64,000 nucleotides of DNA, taken from an uncultured Methanosarcinales archaeon (GTDB taxonomy: Archaea; Nanobdellota; Nanobdellia; Woesearchaeales; CAYPCY01). The position numbers were made by a program, and so were the translations under genes. This document shows positions 1-60,914 of this stretch, piece after piece. Below the pieces are notes generated by a model. The model was not told the DNA's origin. It worked only from the letters and a program-made list of their open reading frames with translations, and did not search any database. Location of the stretch: NCBI GenBank assembly GCA_964409385.1, contig CAYPCY010000001.1, positions 170,546 through 234,545 on the forward strand, in the 5' to 3' direction. The stretch's first letter is position 1; each line of letters begins with the position of its first letter.

Positions 1-1815
1 TTTAATTACTAGTCTCATTTCTTTTTCTTGATCCATATGCCATAATGGACTGAATATTTTCAAGTTTAAATTATCACATATTTTTTCTATTCTTTTCCTT
101 TGATAATCAGAAAATAATGCTCCGGAAACTATTCCTTCAATCTTAAACTTGTCCTTGGCTTGTTTAATTGTCTTTTCCAAGTCTTCTAACTCCTTTTCTT
201 TCTTACCTTCAGTATATCCTGTAACTATTGGAATATCCATTGCTTCAGCTTGTAAATCAACCAGGTGAATGTTTGGTGTGTGAAACATATAAGAGTTTAG
301 ATTCTTGCTTTTCATTGTTATCAAACAAGTAATTTCATAATTTTGCTTCATCATAGTATAAGCTGAAAAAACACTATCCTTCCCGCCAGAGAATAAAGCT
401 CCTAATTTCAAGTTTGGTTTTTTCAAAAACCTACCTAGATATTCTGACTTTCTCTTCAATCCTGCATTTCTAGTTAGTTTTTGTATTGCCCTGTCAAACT
501 TGCTGCCGTATTGTGCTGCTTTCTTCTTTCGTTCTGCAAATTCTTCTGGAATTCCTAATTGTTTAGCAACATCCCTTAAGATTGCCTTGCTACGCCCATC
601 TAGTTTATACTCTGCAGGAATCTTTAATGAATAATCAACTAATTCCTTATCTAAAAACGGTAATCTCAACTCTATACTTTTATTCATTGTTATAACATCA
701 TCCCTGTAAGTATCCCTTTCATAAAGTTTTAACAATCCCGAAACACATTCTTTATTCACTTCTTTAGTTTTAGTATGTCTTTCATAACCCGCAAATATTT
801 CTTCACTTCCCAATCCTGAAAATAAAACTTTAACATTATCTTTCTTAGCCAATTCTGCAGCTGCTAGTATTGTAACTCCAACTCCCACCTTCACGACATT
901 AGTATCTTCGATCAAACTAACTACTTGTTTAATATATTTTTCAACAGAATCCAATTTTACTTTTGCAATCTTAAGTTTAAACCCTAAAGCCTTAGCAACT
1001 TTTTTTGAATATATTAAATCTTCAGGTTCTTTAAAGCCAGGATGGTCAAGAACAGAAACATAACAAGTAAAATCAATATTCTTTTGTTTTAACAACAATG
1101 CTATTAGTGTTGAATCAATACCTCCCGAGAATAAAACACCAAGTTTAACTTTTGGAATTCTCTTTTCTAAAGAATTAACAAGTAAAGACTTTAGTCTTCT
1201 ATCAAGTACTTCCTTACTATTCTTTAATTCAGGCAATATTTTAAAAAAAGGTCTTTTCTTCCTTTCAACCTTCCCGTTCTTAACAGAATAAATTATTACT
1301 TCTCTAGGATTTAGTTCTTCTTCCATCCCTTTCTTTTCAGAACAGAAACTGAATTCTTTTGTAGAATACCATAATGGCTTCACCCCAAGAATATCCCTTG
1401 CCAAATATACTTTATCACCAATCCAATAAGCAAATGCATAAACACCGTCTAATTCATCAAGTGTTTTCATCACTCCCTGCTTATCTAATAATTCCAAAAC
1501 AAGCTCTGCATCATTACTAGAACTTAATGAATATTTCTTACAAAGTTCCTTCCAATTATAAATTTCGCAATTAATTACTAAACAACCCTTTCCTCTCAAA
1601 GGCTGTTTAATATGTGAAACTATTGAATGAAGAACATGACCAATAATATTATTAGAATCTTCAATATTCAATTTATCAATAGAAGCAGAAGTTTCCAAAA
1701 CTGTACCATTATAATATCCACAACCATCCCTACCTCGAGAAGTAATCCTTTCCAAACCTGCTCTTAACTTCACAACAGAGTCTTCCTGGTTGAAATAACC
1801 TATAATTCCACACAT
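1..1815 (-). CDS. Asparagine synthetase B (Ntn glutaminase + synthetase) fused in frame to diphthine-ammonia ligase (Dph6/DUF71 PP-loop); 3' end runs off the window
   Basis: Not in ORF track. Manual translation from ATG at 1815 gives MCGIIG (Ntn Cys). The AsnB motifs FSGGIDS and RKKKAAQYGS follow, then, with no stop across 540-361, KLGALFSGGKDS and SYMFHT typical of Dph6. Own TATA-like TTTATAAA at 1845-1838. Confidence 0.88.
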   Translation of the reverse strand, partial: MCGIIGYFNQEDSVVKLRAGLERITSRGRDGCGYYNGTVLETSASIDKLNIEDSNNIIGHVLHSIVSHIKQPLRGKGCLVINCEIYNWKELCKKYSLSSSNDAELVLELLDKQGVMKTLDELDGVYAFAYWIGDKVYLARDILGVKPLWYSTKEFSFCSEKKGMEEELNPREVIIYSVKNGKVERKKRPFFKILPELKNSKEVLDRRLKSLLVNSLEKRIPKVKLGVLFSGGIDSTLIALLLKQKNIDFTCYVSVLDHPGFKEPEDLIYSKKVAKALGFKLKIAKVKLDSVEKYIKQVVSLIEDTNVVKVGVGVTILAAAELAKKDNVKVLFSGLGSEEIFAGYERHTKTKEVNKECVSGLLKLYERDTYRDDVITMNKSIELRLPFLDKELVDYSLKIPAEYKLDGRSKAILRDVAKQLGIPEEFAERKKKAAQYGSKFDRAIQKLTRNAGLKRKSEYLGRFLKKPNLKLGALFSGGKDSVFSAYTMMKQNYEITCLITMKSKNLNSYMFHTPNIHLVDLQAEAMDIPIVTGYTEGKKEKELEDLEKTIKQAKDKFKIEGIVSGALFSDYQRKRIEKICDNLNLKIFSPLWHMDQEKEMRLVIK

Positions 1816-1845: not shown

Positions 1846-2700
1846 TTATCGCAAAAAATTAATCTTCCAAACTTTTTTTCGAGTATCAATAATACATTCT
1901 TCCCCAATAGGAATTGTGAGGTTTGGTTCTTCATGTCCAATTGGTTGATTAAAAATTATCGGACATTTAAAATCTTTAAAAAATTCTTGTAAATAATTAA
2001 GAACATCCTTATCACACTTTGTAAAATACCCTAAAAGTATTCCTTTAACATTCTCAAATTTTCCAGCAAGTTTCAACTGCCACAACGCATCATAAATATC
2101 CCTTCCATTCCAATGATTTTGCTCTAAAAAAAGAATCTTATCACTAGTTTGAAGTTCATACTTGCTACCTAGAGACTTAGTAAGAACCCTAATAGCACCA
2201 CCAACAATCTTACCCTTTGAAAATCCTTTCTTAAAAACATCCTTCTCTTTCATCCTGACAGAATAATTCTTTTTATTCAAGACATTAAATAAACAAGATA
2301 TTGTTTTCTCATCATACCTTTCATTAAATGGCATTGGACCATGTAAACATCTCAATCCAGTCTTTTGATATATTGCATTTAATAAAATGGTAGCATCACT
2401 AAATCCTATTAATACCTTACCAGATTTTTTTATTAAGTTATAATCTAAAAAAGAAATTACTTGTACAGCACCCATTCCACCCCTTGCACAAACTACTATT
2501 TCAGTATCTTCATCCTTGTAAGCCCTATTAATCTCATCATATCTTCTTTCATAATTTCCTGCATAATAATAAAATTTAGAATTAATACTTTTCAAATATT
2601 TTATTTTCCCAAAACCCCACTTTTTTAAGTTTTTTAAAGAATTATTAAATTTCTCCTTAGATAAATGTCCTGATGGAGCAATTAAAAAAACATTTTTCAT
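1846..2700 (-). CDS. S66 family peptidase (LD-carboxypeptidase LdcA / MccF-like)
   Basis: IAPS, ARGGMG, GFSD (Ser), FLEQ (Glu), PIGH (His) triad motifs. Confidence 0.9.
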   Translation of the reverse strand: MKNVFLIAPSGHLSKEKFNNSLKNLKKWGFGKIKYLKSINSKFYYYAGNYERRYDEINRAYKDEDTEIVVCARGGMGAVQVISFLDYNLIKKSGKVLIGFSDATILLNAIYQKTGLRCLHGPMPFNERYDEKTISCLFNVLNKKNYSVRMKEKDVFKKGFSKGKIVGGAIRVLTKSLGSKYELQTSDKILFLEQNHWNGRDIYDALWQLKLAGKFENVKGILLGYFTKCDKDVLNYLQEFFKDFKCPIIFNQPIGHEEPNLTIPIGEECIIDTRKKVWKINFLR

Positions 2701-3629
2701 CTTGTCTTCTTTTCAATAGCATCCACAACTTCACTCTTCAAATTATAAAGTAAATTTCCAGAATAACCATTAATTTGTGGAGAACCTCCTGAAGTGACTG
2801 AAGTGGAAGAACTATTTATTTCCATTACTCTTCCCTGCCTGAAATCTACACAGCCATAAAACATTCCAGTAATATCCGCGACTGTTTTCACAATATTCAT
2901 TTCGTTCACACTAGGATTTGGATTAATTGTTTTCTCTCCTCCTTTTTCTCTAGCGGGTTTACCGACTTTTTCCATAACTCTAGTCATAACAACATCACCA
3001 TCTAAAAAAATATATCTTTTTTCAACTTGTTCTGGCATATATTTTTCAAATATATAATTACTAATCAAGAAAGGATCAAAAGTAAGTAATGATTCTAACC
3101 CATTAAAATAATTAACACCCATACCTCGCGCTCCAATTTTTGGCTTAGCAATTATTTTCTCTTCACTCTCCACTAAATCTTCCAATTCTTCTTTTGAATT
3201 AACCGAGTAAGAATTTATCCAAGGCAAAGGAAGTTTCCTTTGTTTTTCTTTTGACCTGTATGAATTACTGGCTGCATCATTAACCATCATTCCAACTTGT
3301 TTTTCTATTGAATATAATGAATTAATAAAATATGAAATTAAACCATGATTCATTGAATCTTCCGCGACATGATTCACATAAAAAACATCTCCAGAAATCA
3401 TTTCTTCACCTTCTTGTTTAGTCAACTTTCCATTTTTAAACTTGTACTGGTATGGAGTACAAACAAGTTCATCAACAGAATAAATCTGTCTAGGATGAAT
3501 TATTGTAAGATCATGACCTCTTTTATCAAATTCTTCAACCAGATTAACCGTTGATCTAAATTTAGACTGTTTAGAATTTCTTTCAATGTATGGAATGGCC
3601 TCTTCATTAACACTAATTGTTACTTCCAT
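2697..3629 (-). CDS. ATP-grasp amide/peptide ligase, glutathione-synthetase/RimK-like
   Basis: IAKPKIGARGMGV, FEKYM, EKRY, VDF, MEINS; N-terminal STxxLVEEFxKRGH resembles GshB. Confidence 0.75.
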   Translation of the reverse strand: MEVTISVNEEAIPYIERNSKQSKFRSTVNLVEEFDKRGHDLTIIHPRQIYSVDELVCTPYQYKFKNGKLTKQEGEEMISGDVFYVNHVAEDSMNHGLISYFINSLYSIEKQVGMMVNDAASNSYRSKEKQRKLPLPWINSYSVNSKEELEDLVESEEKIIAKPKIGARGMGVNYFNGLESLLTFDPFLISNYIFEKYMPEQVEKRYIFLDGDVVMTRVMEKVGKPAREKGGEKTINPNPSVNEMNIVKTVADITGMFYGCVDFRQGRVMEINSSSTSVTSGGSPQINGYSGNLLYNLKSEVVDAIEKKTR

Positions 3630-4536
3630 CTAATACAACCTCCATCCTTAAATATTTCTTTCTAATACTCTCAATTAATTTCTCTAAAACATTAAATCCT
3701 AATATTCCTTCATATTCAGGCCGGACATTTGGTGTAGGATTATGTTCTATTACTGAATATCCCTCTTCCGTTTTTATCACGTCTAAAACATCAAACTCCG
3801 CCCCTATAGATTCTGCAGCAATCCTACTAAATTCCTTAAGATCTTCTGGAATACTAACTTCTGGAGGTAATATTTTTGATCCTAATGACCTACTTGCCAA
3901 CCATGGCGCTTCTCCATTTGAAGAAATTAAGGTTCTTTTATGATATAATATTACTTCTCCACCTACAATCCACACTCTATAATCATATCCTTCCATTGGA
4001 GAATGAAATTCTTGAAATATTATTCCTCCAGTATAATCTTCTGAAGATTTAATATTATTAATTGCATATTCAACTTCTTTCAAATTATTACATTTTCTTA
4101 AATCAACACCCCTACCTCCCGTATCCCTTTTAACAATTAATGGAAAATTACCCAAACCAAGAATATTAGATTGGATATCATAATTTTCATCATACAATTT
4201 TGTGTTAGGAGTTCTTATATTAACTGATTTCATTAAATTAAAAGAGTGATACTTACTATAATCTGCAAGACTAGCATTGAATGAATTAACAATCAAAAAA
4301 GTCTCATCCAAAGATCTTAAAAGACTAAGTGTTTTTTTCAAAGAATTATAATCCCTATTAGCAACACTAGCATAAACCCTATTTAAGATTAAATCAGGAT
4401 TGAAACTCCTAAAATCTTCCAAAACAGCCATTCTAATATCAAACATTTCAACATCAGAATTAAATTTTTCTTTAAGAATTCTTTTTAATTCATGCTCTGT
4501 CCATTCAAGATCATGATGTAATATTGCTACTTTCAT
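3613..4536 (-). CDS. ATP-grasp ligase, RimK/LysX family
   Basis: ILNRV, TPNT, IVKRDTGGRGVD, IFQEF, DYRVWIVGG, VIEHNPTP. Confidence 0.85.
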   Translation of the reverse strand: MKVAILHHDLEWTEHELKRILKEKFNSDVEMFDIRMAVLEDFRSFNPDLILNRVYASVANRDYNSLKKTLSLLRSLDETFLIVNSFNASLADYSKYHSFNLMKSVNIRTPNTKLYDENYDIQSNILGLGNFPLIVKRDTGGRGVDLRKCNNLKEVEYAINNIKSSEDYTGGIIFQEFHSPMEGYDYRVWIVGGEVILYHKRTLISSNGEAPWLASRSLGSKILPPEVSIPEDLKEFSRIAAESIGAEFDVLDVIKTEEGYSVIEHNPTPNVRPEYEGILGFNVLEKLIESIRKKYLRMEVVLDGSNN

Positions 4537-4537
4537 T

Positions 4538-5266
4538 TTAATTCTCCAAAATTACTTTTTCTTGCAGTGCCTTAGACAATAAAACAGATTTTTCAGCAAT
4601 TATCTTCATAGGATCTATTAATACAGCATCAGTTAGTTTTTGCCCTAGAACCAATGGTATTTCAGTACATCCCATTATTATTAATTCTGCACCGTTATTC
4701 TTGAAAGAATTCACTGCAGTTAATAATTTTGAAGAGGCATCTTCTTTCCTTCCAGCCTTAATACCATTATCTCCATATATTGAATCCATAACTAAAACTT
4801 CTTGTTCAAACTCGCTCAAATCCAAAACTTCAATACCTGATTTTTCAAAAAGATCATGATAAATTCTTGATTTCACAGTTCCGGAAGTTGCTAATAATCC
4901 TATTTTCTTAACATCTGAATATTTCTCACTAATAAATTTTAAAATTTCAGAAATCATATTAACCATTGGTATTCCAATAGCAGAAGAAACCTCATCAATA
5001 AAATAATGGGAGGTATTACAAGGCATTACTATAAACTCTGCTCCTGCATTTTCTAACTTGTGAGCAGTTTTAATCAATTCACTAACTGGACTTACTCCCC
5101 CATAGAGTATTGCTTCAGTCCTATCAGGAATTTTAGGATTATTGAAAATAACTATAGGAACATGGTCCTGATCTTTCTTAACAGGTGTAGATTTTATGAT
5201 TTTATTATATAAGTAAGACGTTGCTTCAGGACCCATTCCTCCAAGTATTCCTATAGTTCCTCTCAT
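4538..5266 (-). CDS. PLP-independent amino-acid racemase (aspartate racemase/RacX family)
   Basis: IGILGGMGPEAT, IPDRT, both catalytic Cys motifs MPCNT and MGCTE. Confidence 0.93.
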   Translation of the reverse strand: MRGTIGILGGMGPEATSYLYNKIIKSTPVKKDQDHVPIVIFNNPKIPDRTEAILYGGVSPVSELIKTAHKLENAGAEFIVMPCNTSHYFIDEVSSAIGIPMVNMISEILKFISEKYSDVKKIGLLATSGTVKSRIYHDLFEKSGIEVLDLSEFEQEVLVMDSIYGDNGIKAGRKEDASSKLLTAVNSFKNNGAELIIMGCTEIPLVLGQKLTDAVLIDPMKIIAEKSVLLSKALQEKVILEN

Positions 5267-5361
5267 TCTAACAATAAGCTAAAAATAAATATATAAATAT
5301 AGAGATAGAAAAACCAGTAGAAAAGGAATCTTTAAATAAAAGTAGTACCTATTCTACAAAA

Positions 5362-6327
5362 ATGTTAAACTACAAAACAAGTAAATTACTATATTTACTC
5401 TCAGAAAAGTGCAGAATAACAAGCAAAGAACTGAGCAAATCCCTAAAAATCAGTCAGCAAACAGCAAGTTACACAGTACTAAACCTGCTAAAGAAAAAAA
5501 GAATCCTAAAATACCAAACTTTAATAGACCCTGCAAAATTCGGATTAATAAACATAATAGCATTCTTTAGATATACAAATTTCGACAATGCAACAACACA
5601 ACAAATAAAAAAACACCTTAGAGAAAACCAATACATTACAAGAATTGAAAATGTAACTCAAGGATCTGACCTAATGGTAGAATATTGCGTTCCCAACCTA
5701 TCCTTATTCAATAAAGAAAATAGAGACTTCCTGCACAAATTCACAAAAAACATAATAATGAGCGATATTTATGTAGTAATAGTCAAACACATTTACAACA
5801 GAAAATATTTAATGAGAAACTCCACACCAACAGAAGTAATTCTTTCAGGAGATAGAGACTTAGTGAATCTAAGCAATCACCAACTACAAGTCCTAGAATC
5901 CTTAAAGAACAATTCTAAAGAATCAATACTACAAATATCTAAAAAAGTAAAACTAGATCCCAAAACAGTAATTAAAATTAAAAAATATTTAGAAAAACAA
6001 TTAATAATTAGAAAATACGGTTCAGTTCTTAATTATTCTTCTTTAGAAATTAATAGAAAACATGTCCTAATACAATTAGATTATGAAAAACCACACGACA
6101 TAAAAAAATTCATAGAATACGCAAAAAATCATAAAAACATAATAGCAGTAATTAAAACACTAGGAAATTATGAAATGTTCATCACTATTGAAAGAACATA
6201 TCCTGAAAGGTCAGTAATGAATGATTTAAGAAAAGAATTCAAAATCTCCGATTACAAAATAATACCTTCTGAAGGAATACTTAAAAAAAATTATGTACCA
6301 AGCAATATCTTTAAGCAAAATATTTAA
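5362..6327 (+). CDS. Tandem (duplicated) Lrp/AsnC-family transcription regulator
   Basis: Two HTH + effector-domain units (ITSKELSKSLKISQQT; SILQISKKVKLDPKTV...LGNYE); divergent from the racemase operon. Confidence 0.8.
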   Translation: MLNYKTSKLLYLLSEKCRITSKELSKSLKISQQTASYTVLNLLKKKRILKYQTLIDPAKFGLINIIAFFRYTNFDNATTQQIKKHLRENQYITRIENVTQGSDLMVEYCVPNLSLFNKENRDFLHKFTKNIIMSDIYVVIVKHIYNRKYLMRNSTPTEVILSGDRDLVNLSNHQLQVLESLKNNSKESILQISKKVKLDPKTVIKIKKYLEKQLIIRKYGSVLNYSSLEINRKHVLIQLDYEKPHDIKKFIEYAKNHKNIIAVIKTLGNYEMFITIERTYPERSVMNDLRKEFKISDYKIIPSEGILKKNYVPSNIFKQNI

Positions 6328-6350: not shown

Positions 6351-7874
6351 ATGAATATTAAAGATATGAGCACTTTCTGTAAAAAGAAAGGTTTTGTTTT
6401 CCAAAATAGTGAAATTTATGGTGGACTGTCAGGATTGTTTGATTATGGACCTTTAGGAGTAGAATTAAAAAACAATATTAAAGAAAACTGGTGGAATTAT
6501 TTTGTAAGAAGAGAAGAAAACATTTTTGGAATTGATGGTGCAATATTAAGTCATCAAAATATTTGGAAATCATCAGGGCATGTAGAAAATTTTGAGGATA
6601 TTCTAGTCGAAGATAAAGTTACTAAAAAAAGATTCAGAGCAGACCAACTAATAGAAGATGCTCTAGACATACAAGCAGAAGGACTAACCGCAAAAGATTT
6701 AGGAAAACTAATCAAGGAAAACAAAATAACATCACCTAAAGGAAATCCATTAACAGAACCTAAACAATTCAATCTAATGTTCCAAACATTCATAGGACCA
6801 ACACAAACTAAAGAATCAATCTCATACTTAAGGCCTGAAACTGCACAATTAATATTTACTAATTTCAAGCAAGTTGCAGAAACACAAAGAGCAAAACTTC
6901 GCACTCGGCAGCTGGGTATCCATCCAGCGGATTNNNNNNNNNNTCAAAATTGTCAACAATCCATGAGCATGAAAATTCCTTTTGGAATAGCACAAATTGG
7001 AAAAGCCTTTAGAAATGAAATTTCGCCAAGAGAATTCTTATTCAGGCAAAGAGAATTTGAACAAATGGAAGTAGAATTCTTCCTAAGTAAAGACCAACAA
7101 AATAATTGCAAAAAACTTTCGAAATTCAAAAAAACAAAAATTAATTTTCTTTCATCAAATAACAAAAAAGCAAAAATAGTAACAATAGACAAGATAAAAG
7201 CAACGGATTGGCATAAATACTGGTTAATAAAAAGTTACAAATGGTTCTTAGACTTGGGAATTAACAAAAACAATTTAAGAATTAGAGAACATTCCAAAAA
7301 AGAATTAAGTCATTATAGTTCTGCAACTTTCGATATAGAATATAATTTTCCTTTCGGATGGAAAGAAATTCACGGAAATGCAAATAGAGGAAACTTCGAC
7401 CTAAAACAACATATGAAACATTCCAAAGCAAAATTAGAATTGTATGATGAAGAAACAAAAAAGAAAGTATTACCAGAAGTTATTGAACCTTCCCAAGGAG
7501 TTGATAGAGCATTCTTAGCATTTTTATACGATTCTTTTAATGACGATAAAAAAAGAGGTAATATTGTCCTAAAACTTCATCCTAAACTAAGCCCATACAA
7601 AGTGGCAGTATTCCCATTAGTATCTAATAAGAAAGAACTACTGAAACTATCAAAAACAGTTTATTCAAGTTTAGAATTCAATTCATTCTTTGATAAAGCA
7701 GGAAGTATAGGAAGAAGATATGCTCGTCAGGACGAAATAGGAACTCCATTCTGTATAACTATAGATTTTGACAGTCTAAAAGATAAATCAGTAACAATAA
7801 GAGACAGGAACACAATAAGACAGAAAAGAATAAAAATAAGTAAGTTAAACCAATATTTGAGGGATAAATTATGA
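6351..7874 (+). CDS. glyS: Glycine-tRNA ligase (alpha2 type); contains an assembly gap with foreign flanks
   Basis: EIYGG, DYGPLG, YLRPETAQ, QIGKAFRNEI, REFEQME, VIEPSQG, SIGRRYARQDEIGTP. Confidence 0.96.
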   Translation: MNIKDMSTFCKKKGFVFQNSEIYGGLSGLFDYGPLGVELKNNIKENWWNYFVRREENIFGIDGAILSHQNIWKSSGHVENFEDILVEDKVTKKRFRADQLIEDALDIQAEGLTAKDLGKLIKENKITSPKGNPLTEPKQFNLMFQTFIGPTQTKESISYLRPETAQLIFTNFKQVAETQRAKLRTRQLGIHPADXXXXQNCQQSMSMKIPFGIAQIGKAFRNEISPREFLFRQREFEQMEVEFFLSKDQQNNCKKLSKFKKTKINFLSSNNKKAKIVTIDKIKATDWHKYWLIKSYKWFLDLGINKNNLRIREHSKKELSHYSSATFDIEYNFPFGWKEIHGNANRGNFDLKQHMKHSKAKLELYDEETKKKVLPEVIEPSQGVDRAFLAFLYDSFNDDKKRGNIVLKLHPKLSPYKVAVFPLVSNKKELLKLSKTVYSSLEFNSFFDKAGSIGRRYARQDEIGTPFCITIDFDSLKDKSVTIRDRNTIRQKRIKISKLNQYLRDKL

Positions 7875-25628: not shown

Positions 25629-27493
25629 AGAAATTATCAATGAAAGATTCATATAATACAGTGACTTTTACTCTCCGAACATCAGGAAATAATCTAAAGT
25701 AAATATCTAAAGCATATCTTTTATCTAAGAAAACAATAACTCCCCTATCTTTCTCGCTACGAATACATCTTCCTGCAGATTGCATTACTTTATTGAATGC
25801 AGGTATTAAATAACCATAATCCCAACCCTTACCAAATTTAGTTTCATAATAATCAATTAGTGATTTAGTTTCTAAATTTGGTTTTTGTAAGGGTAATCCT
25901 ACAACAATTACTGCTTTTAAGAAATCTCCATGTAAATTTATACTTTCAGAAAAACTTCCTGAAGAAACAGCCATTAAACAAGCTCCAGTTTCTTTAAAAC
26001 CCTTAAATTCCTCTAATAATTTCTGTTTTTCTTCCTTTGTTGAATTACTACTTTCTAAAAGCAATGGTTTTTCAGAGAATAAGGTTAGTTTTCTATGAAC
26101 TTCATTTCTTAAGAAATAACTAGGAAAGAATATTATTACATTTCCTGGAACTTTTGATATTATCTTACTACAATGTTCCGCAATATTTTCGTATTGTTGT
26201 TCTGATCTTTCCTTATATTTAGTTGTGGTTTTAGGAACTACTAATAACAATTTATTTTCTTCTGGAAATGGATCTGGATAAGTAATTTCTTTAGTTTCTT
26301 TTGAAAAACCCAATATTTCTTTATACATTGAAGTAGGAGTTAAAGTTCCAGACATTATAATTACTGAAGAACTAACATCTATTACTTCTTTAGCAATAAT
26401 ACTAGGATCTAAGCACCTGTAAGATAAAGTTGTAAAGTCTTCCTCTTTAGATATTATCCTCACATGACCTTCTTCATCCTTGCTCCAGTTTTCTAAAAAA
26501 CCTGCTAGGCTTCCTAAGAATGATATCCTTTGTTCTTCCCTAACAGTATCTGCTAGTTTTTCTAAATCTTTAATTACTTCATCATACTCTACTATTCTGC
26601 TTATTCCTTCTATTAAAAAATTTTTATTAACCCTTTTTTCTGTTTCACCCTCTAACTTCCCAGTTTCGCTCTCTAACAATAANNNNNNNNNNGTCACATA
26701 AAACAATTTTTTCTATTATCGCATTCAATTCAGGATCATGTTTTCTTGATTCTTTTAATGCTCTTGAGAGTATGAAACTATTTATTTTTGCAGATGCTAA
26801 ATCTTTTATTCTCTCTCCTAAATTATGAGCCTCATCAACAATTATTATACTATCCTCTAAATTTTTACCAATTTTTGTTAAAAATCGTTCTCTAATACTA
26901 GGATTGAATAAATAATAATAATCACACACTATAACTTTTGAATTTTCACATAATAAAGTTGAAATTTCATAAGGACACAATCCAGCTTGTTTCATTTCCT
27001 TTTGTATGATTTCAGAATCCAAAGGCGTTCTTTCCTTTAATCTAACAACTGCAAGTTCAGAGTCTATTGTTGTCTTTCCCTTTTTTTTGGTTTTAGAATA
27101 AAAATCACATTTGTCATCTTCCCTTACTGCCTTGCAATATTCTGAAAAGTCTGAACTTGTTAGTGTTTGAACACCTTCTACTGCACATAACCATTTTTTA
27201 CCTACAATACTAGTAACTCCAAAATTCAAATCATATTTTTCTTTTATTTTCTTTGCAGTTTTCAATACTATCCTATGTTGTGTATGTCTTGAAGTCAGGA
27301 AGAATACTGTTTTCTCACTCTTCATAGCATAAGCCAATGCAGGAGCCAATGCTGAGGCTGTTTTTCCTATGCCTGTAGGTGCATTAATAACCAAATTATT
27401 AGAATTATTAACAGCATCTCTAACTTCTTGAACTAATGAAGACTGTATTTTTCTAAAATTTTCATGGGGAAAGAGAACTTCTTCTGAATTCAT
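25597..27493 (-). CDS. xpd: XPD/Rad3 Fe-S DNA helicase (appears as two ORFs only because of the N-gap at 26683-26692)
   Basis: APTGIGKT, four Fe-S Cys ending in CPYE, DEAH, SGTL, FFPSY, QSAGRCIR; start MNSEEVLFPH. Confidence 0.9.
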
Positions 27494-28355: not shown

Positions 28356-29429
28356 TTACTTGACAATCTCAATGCCTAGTTCTTCGCTCATCCGTTCTCT
28401 GTTTGCAGTCTTTTCCCTTTCTGTTTCTCTTCCTAAGACCCATGGACTACTTACTCCTGTAATTATTGTCATTACAGTAAGTTTTCCTTTCATTTCTTCA
28501 GTAACCCTTGCTCCCCAGATTACATTGGCATCTTCGTCCATGCTTTCAGTCACTAGTTCTCCTACTTTGTTTATTTCATCAAGAGTAAGATCTGGACCTC
28601 CAGATATGTGGATTATAGCTCCGCTTGCTCCGTCATAGTTAACATCTAGTAGTGGGTTTGATAATGCTCCCCTTACTGCTTCTTCTACTTTATTATTAGT
28701 ATCTGAAGCTCCTACTCCGATTACTGCAACATCTCCATTAGTCATTATTGTCTTTACATCTGCAAAGTCTAAATTAACTAATGATGGAACAGCTATTGTT
28801 TCTACAATTCCCTTAATCATTGTTGAGATTAATTCGTTAGCTACTGCGAAAGCTTGTTGTAATGGCAAGTTTCCTGCAATTTCAACTAGTCTATTATTGT
28901 CTAAGACTATTGCAGTATCTGCAACTTTTCTTAGCTGTTGTAAACCAAATTCTGCCTTATCTACTCTTGCTCTTTCAATCTTGAAAGGCATTGTTACAGT
29001 CCCTATTACTATAGCTCCTGTATCTTTAGCTACTTGTGCTATTACTGGTGCAGAACCTGTTCCTGTTCCTCCACCCATTCCTGAACATACAAATACTAAG
29101 TCTGCTCCTTTCATAGATTCTTTAATTTCATTGATTGATTCTTGAGCTGCTTCTGCTCCTTTTTGTGGGAATCCTCCACAGCCTAGGCCTCTTGTTAGGT
29201 CTTTTCCTATTAGAAATTTCCTGTCAGCTTCGGTAATTTTCAAATGTTGTTGGTCAGTATTACAAGCTATTATTTCAGCTCCCTTAATACCTTTTTTGTA
29301 TAACCAGTTAACAATATTGTTTCCGGCTCCACCAGTTCCTACTACTTTAATATTCGCTTGGCTTAGGTCTAGTTCTTCAACTCCCATCGCTTCAGCATTT
29401 TTTTTTGCTTGGTCTATTACAAAATCCAT
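28356..29429 (-). CDS. ftsZ: Cell division GTPase FtsZ
   Basis: [29 protein letters not shown]. Confidence 0.98.
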
Positions 29430-29527
29430 TTTATTATCTCCCCCTTCGAGTTTTTTTTATTGTGAGCATTACAACTAACGAAAAGTTTATATACTAGTTA
29501 GCACACTACTCTTTTAGAAACAAAATT

Positions 29528-33625: not shown

Positions 33626-33659
33626 AATTTTTAAAACAGTTCTTTTTTTCAAAGTCTAT

Positions 33660-33752
33660 AGTCCCGTAGTGTAGCGGCCAATCATCTCAGCCTTTGGCAG
33701 AAATCATTTCTGAAGACAGCTGAGGACCCCAGTTCGAATCTGGGCGGGACTA
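33660..33752 (+). tRNA. tRNA-Gln(TTG) with 20-nt intron (33698-33717) at 37/38
   Basis: A1-U72 acceptor AGTCCCG/CGGGACT; anticodon stem TCAGC/GCTGA; BHB central helix CTTT/GAAG with 3-nt bulges. Confidence 0.95.
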
Positions 33753-33757
33753 TACTT

Positions 33758-59168: not shown

Positions 59169-60914
59169 ATGAGAAGTCCTATAGTTTCAGTTTTGGGTCA
59201 TGTTGATCATGGTAAGACTAGTATTTTGGATTGTATTAGGAGGAGTTCTGTTACTAGTGGTGAGTCTGGGGGTATTACTCAGTCTATTGGTGCTTCTATT
59301 GTTCCTATTGAGTCTATTAAGAAGAATTCTGAAAATTTGCTTTCTTTGACTAAGACTAAATTGGATATTCCTGGATTGTTGTTTATTGATACTCCTGGTC
59401 ATGCTGCTTTTTCTAGTATGAGGTCTCGTGGGGGTAATCTTGCTGATATTGCTGTTTTAGTGGTTGATATTAATGAGGGTTTTAAGCCGCAGACTATAGA
59501 GGCTGTTGAGATTTTGAAGAGTTTCAAGACTCCTTTTATTATTGCTGCTAATAAGCTTGACTTAGTTCCTGGTTATAGAAAGGTTGATGATTTATTGCTT
59601 TCTGATCTTGGAAAACAGAGTTCTAACGTTCGGGAGAGTGTTGATACTAAACTTTACGAGTTAGTTGGTAAGATTCATGAAAAATTCTCTTTGAATGCGG
59701 ATAGGTTTGATAGGGTTGATGATTATACTAAGAAAATTGCTATTATTCCTTGTAGTGCTGTTCAAAATTTGGGGGTTTCTGAACTTTTAATTATTGTTTC
59801 GGGCATGGCCCAGAAGTTTTTGGAGGATTCTTTAAAGATTGATGTTAAGGGTTTTGCTAAAGGTACTGTTTTGGAGGTTAAGGAGGAGAAAGGATTGGGT
59901 AATTCATTGAATAGTATTATTTATGACGGTACTTTGAAAGTTAATGATTGTATTGTCTTTGCAGGTATTGAAAAGGCTATTGTTACTAAGGTCAGAGCAT
60001 TATTTCTTCCTCAAGAACTTAGTGAAATGAGAGATAAGAAGACCAAATTCAAGTCTGTCAAGGAAGTTCATGCTGCTGCAGGAGTGAAGATTGTTTGTCC
60101 TTTGCAAGAACAGGTCCTTTCTGGTATGGCTTTTGAAACTTGCAATAAAGAGTCCATTAATGAAGTTTCTAATAAATTACAGGAGCAAGTTTCTGACATT
60201 TTCATAAATACTGATTCTGACGGTATTATTGCCAAGGCGGATAGTATTGGTGGTTTGGAAGCATTAGTTAAATTATTGAAAGAGCATAATATTAAGATTA
60301 GAAAGGCTAGTATTGGTAATATTACTAAGAAGGATATTATTGATGCTGAATCTTCTAAAAATTCTTTTTTACGAGTTGTTCTTGGTTTTAATGTTTCGTT
60401 AGATGGAACTCCTGAAAAGGCTAAAATTATAACTTCTGACATTATTTATAGGCTTATTGAAGATTATGAAGCGTGGATTAAAGATGTTAAGAAGGAGCTT
60501 GAAGAGAAAGAAGTTGATAAGCTTGTAAGACCTGCCAAATTAGAAATTTTACAAAATTGCATTTTTAGGCAGAGTAATCCTTGCATTTTTGGTGTTGAGG
60601 TTCTTTCTGGAAAGATAAAGAGTGGAATTCCGGTAATGAACAAGAATGGCGATAGACTTTCAGTTATTAAGAGTATTAATATTGAGAATAAGGCTGTTTC
60701 TTATGCTGAGAAGGGAAAGCAAGTTGCTATTTCCTGTCCTGGAATTACTGCTGGTCGTCAGATTAACGAGCAGGATATTTTATACTCTTCAATTTCAGAA
60801 AGTGATTTTAGGGAATTAAAAAGATTGAAAGAATACTTGTCTAATGATGAAATTTCTATTTTGAAAGAGATTGTTGAGATTAAGAGAAGGAAAAATCCTG
60901 TCTGGGGTATATAA
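59169..60914 (+). CDS. infB: Translation initiation factor aIF5B (IF-2)
   Basis: GHVDHGKT, GGITQ, DTPGH, NKLD, FRQSNP. Confidence 0.96.
   Translation: MRSPIVSVLGHVDHGKTSILDCIRRSSVTSGESGGITQSIGASIVPIESIKKNSENLLSLTKTKLDIPGLLFIDTPGHAAFSSMRSRGGNLADIAVLVVDINEGFKPQTIEAVEILKSFKTPFIIAANKLDLVPGYRKVDDLLLSDLGKQSSNVRESVDTKLYELVGKIHEKFSLNADRFDRVDDYTKKIAIIPCSAVQNLGVSELLIIVSGMAQKFLEDSLKIDVKGFAKGTVLEVKEEKGLGNSLNSIIYDGTLKVNDCIVFAGIEKAIVTKVRALFLPQELSEMRDKKTKFKSVKEVHAAAGVKIVCPLQEQVLSGMAFETCNKESINEVSNKLQEQVSDIFINTDSDGIIAKADSIGGLEALVKLLKEHNIKIRKASIGNITKKDIIDAESSKNSFLRVVLGFNVSLDGTPEKAKIITSDIIYRLIEDYEAWIKDVKKELEEKEVDKLVRPAKLEILQNCIFRQSNPCIFGVEVLSGKIKSGIPVMNKNGDRLSVIKSINIENKAVSYAEKGKQVAISCPGITAGRQINEQDILYSSISESDFRELKRLKEYLSNDEISILKEIVEIKRRKNPVWGI

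Follow-up and report, generated by a model that had tools for sequence, protein, structure and literature searches.

Introduction

In Enterococcus and Lactococcus, the racD-asl system combines an aspartate racemase with an ATP-grasp D-aspartate ligase (Aslfm/AslA). Here we describe a cluster of related composition in a window of 64,000 nucleotides (the whole stretch of DNA analyzed, positions 170,546 to 234,545 of contig CAYPCY010000001.1, assembly GCA_964409385.1), whose relatives are Pacearchaeota and Woesearchaeota records (DPANN archaea). The cluster encodes a pyridoxal phosphate (PLP)-independent aspartate-type racemase, a RimK-like ATP-grasp ligase (denoted AG1), a second ATP-grasp ligase (denoted AG2) and an S66 peptidase, and it is divergent from a gene for a tandem Lrp/AsnC-type regulator. 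As in racD-asl, a PLP-independent aspartate-type racemase lies beside an ATP-grasp amide ligase, an order suited to making a D-residue and then ligating it. Unlike racD-asl, the window contains two ligases, from the RimK and GshB branches, together with S66 and Lrp genes in an archaeal host; the acceptor in the known system is a murein precursor, for whose synthesis no pathway is present here, given that no Mur ligase was found over cut-off. Neither AG1 nor AG2 gave an NCBIfam match named D-aspartate ligase at an E-value of 0.01 or below.

Four further systems invite comparison. In glutathione synthesis, GshA and then GshB build a small peptide by two ATP-dependent ligations, and a dedicated hydrolase is required to break it down; the fold of AG2 is nearest to 1gsa. 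The first ligase of the window, by contrast, is RimK-like and not a GshA, and a racemase and S66 are attached. AG1 shares its RimK ATP-grasp domain with the α-L-glutamate ligases RimK, LysX, MptN and CofF, among which its best solved and curated relatives are found, but it stays below all of their cut-offs, and bacterial S6 or LysW-type targets are not indicated here. The S66 peptidase has both domains, the Ser-Glu-His triad and the fold of LdcA/YkfA and MccF, with the length and architecture of LdcA. Unlike these enzymes, its subfamily occurs in DPANN archaea and one Patescibacteria-labelled record, is tied to ATP-grasp ligases, and is not linked to murein-recycling or microcin genes. Finally, the assembly of closthioamide, which is independent of non-ribosomal peptide synthetases (NRPS; PMC7183216), pairs an ATP-grasp enzyme (CtaD) with a papain-fold transacylase (CtaG), much as ATP-grasp and DUF3335 (PF11814) genes are paired in sister cassettes of the locus; unlike that system, the window has S66 instead and lacks a carrier protein, a decarboxylase and a DUF3335 gene.

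The cassette works like racD-asl and two-step glutathione synthesis, and is a member of neither. It belongs to a known kind, ATP-grasp peptide synthesis with one ligase per bond and a racemase; new are the lineage and the ligase branches, which have no curated models. A preliminary description of this DNA, made from its sequence, knew of no archaeal system with such a composition, and the composition indeed seems to be undescribed: a search of freely readable literature found no description of the cassette. D-amino acids and racemases are widespread in archaea, and we know of no archaeal pathway that consumes D-amino acids. In the reading that we favor, and to which we give a little better than an even chance, the racemase supplies D-aspartate, AG1 and AG2 form one amide bond each, and S66 cuts a terminal L-D bond for turnover.

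Conservation of the cassette

AG2 loci were drawn from species-representative genomes, a phylum sample of 400 genomes, and metagenomes. After near-identical copies had been dropped (L022 as L002, L023 as L003, L027 as L004, L031 and L032 as L006, L030 as L029, and L015 as L005), 18 distinct AG2 loci were retained besides the window. S66 adjoins AG2 in 16 of the 18; in the two S66-less loci, AG2 is followed by oxidoreductase genes (L002) or by a gene for a trypsin-like peptidase (L028). Where upstream sequence is available (15 loci), AG1 is found ahead of AG2 in 12 cases; it is missing in L017, L018 and L020, and in L024 it is split into two open reading frames (ORFs). The full arrangement seen in the window recurs in L016. 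Within the phylum sample, AG2 is present in six of 400 other genomes. The core of the cassette is AG2 and S66, usually with AG1; the racemase and Lrp are accessory. The co-occurrence of the genes elsewhere, which the preliminary description had proposed to check by a neighborhood search, was found, and the arrangement exceeds what chance would give. A conserved functional unit is supported for the two ligases and S66 but not for four genes that are always together, the racemase being the inconstant member.

The divergence of the three core genes was correlated over 10 loci, with Mantel r values of 0.83 for AG1-AG2, 0.73 for AG2-S66 and 0.49 for AG1-S66. The pattern is consistent with the three genes being inherited together, but vertical descent of any genes would also produce a correlation.

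The S66 proteins of AG2 cassettes form a distinct short subfamily, at whose edge the bit score drops from 237 to 181. Some S66 homologue occurs in 54 of the 400 phylum-sample genomes (a count that includes the unpublished genome G395). Neither AG1 nor AG2 was detected by tblastn beside the 16 further S66 loci that were fetched. Fifteen of these encode proteins of about 30% identity to the window S66, and one (L035) a protein of 53% identity, whose gene is preceded by another ATP-grasp gene and a gene for a 414-residue protein.

Several neighbors of individual cassettes were recorded. In L020 (genome G128), an opine/octopine dehydrogenase gene lies between the AG2-like ligase and S66. In L017 (genome G086), genes for a PLP-dependent Ala_racemase_N-type protein and for a 411-residue protein are found near AG2, AG3 (a ligase introduced below) and S66; the 411-residue protein has a 440-residue homologue in the racemase cassette L053, and no Pfam family was found for the 411–440-residue proteins of L017, L035 and L053. 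Genes for proteases are repeatedly seen in the surroundings: the cassette is flanked by large subtilase (S8) genes in L003 (3520-6279, minus strand) and L024 (9866-12736, plus strand), and the trypsin-like peptidase gene of L028 (2102-3037, plus strand) stands in the place of S66.

A ligase-bound racemase subclade and its sister cassettes

A homologue of the window racemase is present in 76 of the 400 phylum-sample genomes. All seven of the closest orthologues (in G391, G286, G133, G251, G287, G026 and G123; 42–54% identity) adjoin ATP-grasp genes: two of these loci are window-type cassettes, and five contain AG3, a different GshB-like ligase, with or without AG1. In contrast, none of the next 20 racemase homologues (30–38% identity) has a homologue of AG1, AG2, AG3, S66 or M55 in its fetched flanks, some of which are cut by contig ends and in which unrelated ligase families would be missed. 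A DUF3335 gene lies 3 kb away in one of these 20 control loci. The racemase of the window is thus part of a subclade that is tied to ATP-grasp ligases.

Three of the five AG3 cassettes have no S66 but encode in its stead a D-aminopeptidase of the Peptidase_M55 family together with a DUF3335 protein that is C39-like, and both M55 and GH3 are present in sister loci. The appearance of S66 and M55, two families of D-residue peptidases, on the same racemase-ligase core provides the strongest support for a D-amino-acid peptide. Cassettes L017, L019, L053 and L054 contain three or four ATP-grasp genes, which fits the notion of one ligase per bond, and a DUF3335 (PF11814) gene is found in cassettes L005, L051, L052 and L055. 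The D-amino-acid peptide put forward in the preliminary description has therefore gained from the association of the racemase subclade with ligases and from the exchange of S66 for M55; it has lost from the inconstancy of the racemase.

Properties of the encoded proteins

The racemase scored 143.4 bits against the Pfam family Asp_Glu_race (cut-off 31), 222.3 bits against TIGR00035, the PLP-independent aspartate racemase family (cut-off 93.1), and 229 bits against NF052483, the equivalog model of the cysteate racemase CuyB (cut-off 190). Its nearest solved relative is the aspartate racemase of Pyrococcus horikoshii (1jfl; E-value 1.9e-59 over residues 4-230). Both catalytic-type cysteines are kept (Cys83 and Cys200), in agreement with the earlier assignment as a two-cysteine racemase. 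With the amino-acid and the cysteate racemase models both passed, aspartate is judged to be the likeliest, but not a proven, substrate.

AG1 contains the RimK ATP-grasp domain PF08443 (51.5 bits, cut-off 21), and among solved structures those of RimK and LysX/ArgX enzymes are closest to it in sequence. It reached none of the subfamily or equivalog models of the RimK/LysX/MptN/CofF group, scoring 71.8 bits against 143.4 for TIGR00768 (rimK_fam) and 32.2 against 331, 54 against 275.6, 61.3 against 350 and 41.4 against 300 for the others. Residues K136, D252, E264 and N266 are invariant. A word-indexed search returned 141 relatives of AG1, labelled as DPANN archaea, one Thorarchaeota record and Patescibacteria.

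The same type of search returned seven relatives of AG2, and a HMMER profile search of 1.84 billion representatives yielded 197 matches at an E-value of 1e-3 or below, 34 of them at 1e-30 or below. AG2 missed the curated cut-offs for GshB (24.2 bits against 272 for NF003573, 23.7 against 299 for TIGR01380, and 19.8 against 23 for GSH-S_ATP, PF02955). The tubulin-tyrosine ligase (TTL) profile PF03133 was reached with 21.4 bits (cut-off 20.1; E-value 1.7e-4), only 98 of its 292 positions being matched, and no TTL structure was among the fold matches listed for AG2. The AlphaFold model (mean predicted local distance difference test score, pLDDT, of 94.5) has E. coli GshB (1gsa) as its top fold match, with a template-modelling score (TM-score) of 0.70, followed by RimK, PsnB and ArgX, and a search of the ESM Atlas returned generic GSH-S_ATP and RimK clusters only. 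In an alignment of 48 sequences, K127, K162, D262 and N272 are invariant and E270 nearly so. Judged from the predicted model, the likeness of AG2 to GshB is one of a three-domain ATP-grasp fold with ATP and Mg ligands and not of orthology, given the wide gap between 24.2 bits and the GshB cut-off of 272. AG2 is a member of a small family that has no curated model. AG1 and AG2 are distant homologues of each other (hhalign probability 98.6%, 15% identity); a prediction of an AG1-AG2 complex, run without controls, gave a score of 0.00 and has no bearing either way.

Both Peptidase_S66 domains were recognized in the S66 protein, with 109.2 bits for the N domain (cut-off 25) and 99.5 bits for the C domain (cut-off 23.7). 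The Ser-Glu-His triad, reported as intact in the preliminary description, is indeed so: Ser101, Glu193 and His256 are invariant across 40 aligned sequences, bacterial ones included. The predicted model has a pLDDT of 97.2, and the best mutual fold coverage was obtained with LdcA of P. aeruginosa (1zrs; TM-scores of 0.89 and 0.86, root-mean-square deviation of 2.1 Å). The score against the LdcA equivalog NF008424 was 102.2 bits, below its cut-off of 378. MccF chains are 45–50 residues longer than the window S66 and align with it in two pieces; normalized to the length of MccF, the TM-score is 0.77, versus 0.86 for LdcA. The window S66 is a short form with the length and architecture of LD-carboxypeptidases.

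Distant S66 homologues (about 30% identity, with no ligase partners) adjoin or lie near aminoacyl-tRNA synthetase genes in four of the 16 further S66 loci (L036, L038, L045 and L049). The synthetases are AlaRS, a class I enzyme, a TyrRS/TrpRS two genes off, and an Asp/Lys/Asn-type class II enzyme, separated by a 1-nt gap. As MccF-type S66 enzymes cut aminoacyl-adenylate analogues, this adjacency could exceed chance.

The regulator matched the Pfam families HTH_24 (33.6 bits) and HTH_AsnC-type (28.5 bits, cut-off 27). For AsnC_trans_reg it remained below the cut-off of 25 with 17.8 bits, whereas the orthologues in L018 and L019 exceeded it with 44.6 and 37.2 bits. Two Lrp-like modules were recognized with NCBIfam models (residues 7-109 and 174-303), in line with the tandem regulator that had been described as divergent from the operon. 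Of the 11 AG2 loci whose upstream flank extends for 1 kb or more, four have a divergent tandem Lrp gene (L016, L018, L019 and L024). The intergenic region of the window contains no inverted repeat with 6-nt arms. A shared operator was sought by eye in five Lrp-operon intergenic regions (window, L016, L018, L019 and L024) and rejected, as neither a common palindrome nor an evident shared motif was seen.

Proposed pathway and alternative explanations

The operon would provide a cytoplasmic, non-ribosomal route to a peptide of about three residues, with one ligase per bond. L-aspartate would be converted to D-aspartate by the racemase, and the RimK-like AG1 and the GshB-fold AG2 would each form one amide bond via an acyl-phosphate intermediate. 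S66 would then hydrolyze the L-D bond at the C-terminal end of the peptide, thereby setting the level of the peptide or recycling it, and the tandem Lrp protein would tie expression to the supply of amino acids. A hydrophobic, signal-like start was seen by eye in none of the four operon proteins, and the chemistry is therefore taken to be cytoplasmic. A D-residue or iso-linkage would shield the peptide in a cell that hydrolyzes scavenged peptides, so that a private, stereospecific peptidase would be needed. The D-amino acid of the peptide is most likely D-aspartate. The gene families, the intact catalytic residues, the conserved linkage and the exchange for another D-specific peptidase in sister cassettes are observed; which substrates are used (D-aspartate or D-glutamate among them), in what order the ligases act, whether the bonds are peptide or isopeptide bonds, whether S66 cuts the product and what the product does are our inference, as are the roles in surface modification, as a host mimic or as an osmolyte that the preliminary description had listed.

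Several observations weigh against this pathway. Among the 11 loci with 1 kb or more of flanking sequence upstream, the racemase adjoins AG2 in only two (L005 and L016), and a search with the window racemase did not find it in G086, G128, G377 and G384, four genomes that contain AG2 as well as S66. It may be, then, that many cassettes work with L-substrates only, or with imported D-amino acids. Neither AG1 nor AG2 reached an equivalog model, and the S66 family includes MccF, which cuts aminoacyl-nucleotides instead of L-D peptide bonds. Nor did we find an exporter or other conserved partner that would indicate a role. In addition, PMC7183216 describes PF11814-like papain-fold proteins that can be biosynthetic transacylases working with ATP-grasp enzymes, so that the 'peptidases' of the cassettes need not be hydrolases but could build.

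The source genome, of 798 kb in 15 contigs and rated 100% complete, gives the setting in which other explanations have to be judged. A statement in the preliminary description that DPANN archaea have no known murein agrees with it: no match over cut-off was obtained for the Mur ligase family PF08245, which a control search found in 13 of 14 control genomes and over cut-off in 12, and the organism's own synthesis of murein or pseudomurein was rejected for this reason. Yet two genes outside the window (G000:C1:56622-57017 and 59862-60239) encode murein lytic-transglycosylase (SLT) domains that score above the Pfam cut-off, which makes bacterial cell-wall peptides a live context. The organism is likely to be a symbiont of bacteria, and the SLT genes fit published ideas of archaeal attachment to bacteria. 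In bacteria, S66, M55 and GH3 are murein-recycling families, and M55 and GH3, as seen above, accompany the sister loci. An unlikely alternative is that S66 (with M55 and GH3 in sister loci) and the racemase salvage imported murein stem peptides, degrading them and turning D-Asp or D-Glu into the L-form for an amino-acid auxotroph, while the ligases re-use the pieces. In two published reports, a muramoyltetrapeptide carboxypeptidase is recorded in many Pacearchaeota genomes, with peptidoglycan proposed as an amino-acid source (PMC11537232), and large murein-transglycosylase proteins are reported for small Pacearchaeota and Woesearchaeota (PMC8204110); these reports, like the two SLT genes, speak for salvage. 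Catabolism, however, has no need of two ATP-consuming ligases, the very genes that accompany this S66 subfamily most regularly (16 of 18 loci). S66 falls far short of the LdcA equivalog cut-off, a search of the genome found no SBP_bac_5 oligopeptide-binding protein, and 15 of the 16 other S66 genes stand in unrelated, ligase-free contexts, the exception being L035 with its other ATP-grasp gene. The archaea probably live on bacteria, given the SLT genes that they carry, and in a bolder and improbable reading they would make a D-aspartate mimic of the murein stem peptide or cross-bridge for use on the wall of the bacterial host. The mimic would, for example, be exchanged into the host peptidoglycan or block the host transpeptidases, with S66 as the L-D exchange or trimming enzyme; if true, this would be the first archaeal D-amino-acid peptide pathway, and one aimed at a bacterial host.

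The ligases themselves suggest other products. AG1 is RimK-like, with RimK and LysX/ArgX as its nearest solved relatives, and AG2 has a fold like those of GshB and RimK and matches the TTL profile over a short stretch. In L005 the cassette is joined by a C39-like DUF3335 gene, and in Pseudomonas a trimming protease is encoded in RimK operons. AG1 and AG2 might accordingly extend the acidic C-terminus of a target protein, which S66 would trim, but we regard such a writer and eraser of protein tails as unlikely. M55 enzymes are known to act on short peptides only, and the racemase and the swap to a D-aminopeptidase suit free short peptides, which has also made the protein tag considered in the preliminary description less likely; moreover, the operon contains no conserved gene for a carrier or a small target. 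FtsZ was tried as a target by analogy with tubulin-tyrosine ligase and rejected: its gene is within a few kb of the cassettes of L005, L006 and L034 and of the sister cassette L053, but is 22 kb off in the window, and the C-termini of the FtsZ proteins are GIDFL-like and not acidic. The proximity looks like conserved synteny of the lineage and not like a functional link. ATP-grasp ligases also make Trojan-horse dipeptide antibiotics in bacteria, and S66 is as close to the MccF immunity proteins as to LdcA in sequence and fold. The organism being probably symbiotic with bacteria, the ligases might yield a toxic peptide or aminoacyl conjugate that acts on a host or competitor, and S66 might protect the producer in the manner of MccF; we consider this very unlikely, as no warhead-synthesis gene, exporter or MccB-like adenylating gene was seen in the operon or its relatives, and S66 seems to have no counterpart of the extra MccF segment and fits the MccF length less well than that of LdcA.

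A racemase subclade is bound to ATP-grasp ligases and D-residue peptidases in genomes of about 0.8–1.2 Mb that keep few biosynthetic genes, and the retention of this small, self-contained cassette, which costs two ATP per product, suggests that the product matters. This product could be a protease-proof small peptide with a function in storage, protection or signaling, or else a compound deployed on a bacterial host. AG2 and the sister ligases add branches that have no curated models to the GshB/RimK group of ATP-grasp enzymes.

Organization of the locus and neighboring genes

The coordinates of the operon, the regulator gene and other features of the window are listed in the table. The racemase and AG1 genes are separated by a 1-nt gap, AG1 and AG2 overlap by 17 nt, and AG2 and S66 share an ATGA overlap; the ORF list and a reading of the sequence bear out these three junctions and the tight, co-oriented packing noted in the preliminary description. 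No paralogue of any of the four operon genes was found within the 798-kb genome.

Features of the window discussed in the text (positions count from the first nucleotide of the window; aa, amino acids; nt, nucleotides)
Feature	Position	Strand	Length	Source
AsnB-Dph6 fusion (part within the window)	1-1815	-	694 aa (whole protein)	
S66 peptidase	1846-2700	-	284 aa	ORF list
AG2, second ATP-grasp ligase	2697-3629	-	310 aa	ORF list
AG1, RimK-like ATP-grasp ligase	3613-4536	-	307 aa	ORF list
PLP-independent aspartate-type racemase, first gene of the operon	4538-5266	-	242 aa	ORF list
Divergent AT-rich intergenic region, presumed promoters and operator	5267-5361		95 nt	
Tandem Lrp/AsnC-type regulator, divergent from the operon	5362-6327	+	321 aa	
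Glycyl-tRNA synthetase	6351-7874			
Run of 10 N	6934-6943		10 nt	
Run of 10 N	26683-26692		10 nt	
FtsZ orthologue	28362-29435	-		
tRNA-Lys (UUU)	33659-33753	+	95 nt	ARAGORN

A gene for a fusion protein lies 30 nt downstream of S66 and continues to 269 bases before the window start (G000:C1:170276-172360). The protein joins a complete glutamine-dependent asparagine-synthetase-like part (GATase and Asn_synthase, with the N-terminal Cys2 present) to a diphthine-ammonia ligase (Dph6) domain. L021, a close relative, is the only other locus in which this gene was seen to adjoin S66. The whole fusion is present as a single open frame in about 17 of the 40 relatives searched, others having a shorter, Asn_synthase-only gene and a separate Dph6. 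From its domains, the fusion may be a glutamine-fed enzyme of diphthamide amidation. The trio of genes for the dipeptide N-acetylglutaminylglutamine amide (NAGGN) includes an amidotransferase, and by this analogy the fusion was considered as a member of the cassette; the candidate was rejected, as the adjacency is confined to L021, and the gene is probably a housekeeping gene.

On the other side of the operon, the glycyl-tRNA synthetase gene begins just past the Lrp gene. One of the two runs of N in the window lies inside this gene and appears as XXXX in its translation. The tRNA-Lys gene was detected by ARAGORN, while the Rfam tRNA model was silent at its gathering threshold; it may represent an intron-containing archaeal tRNA.

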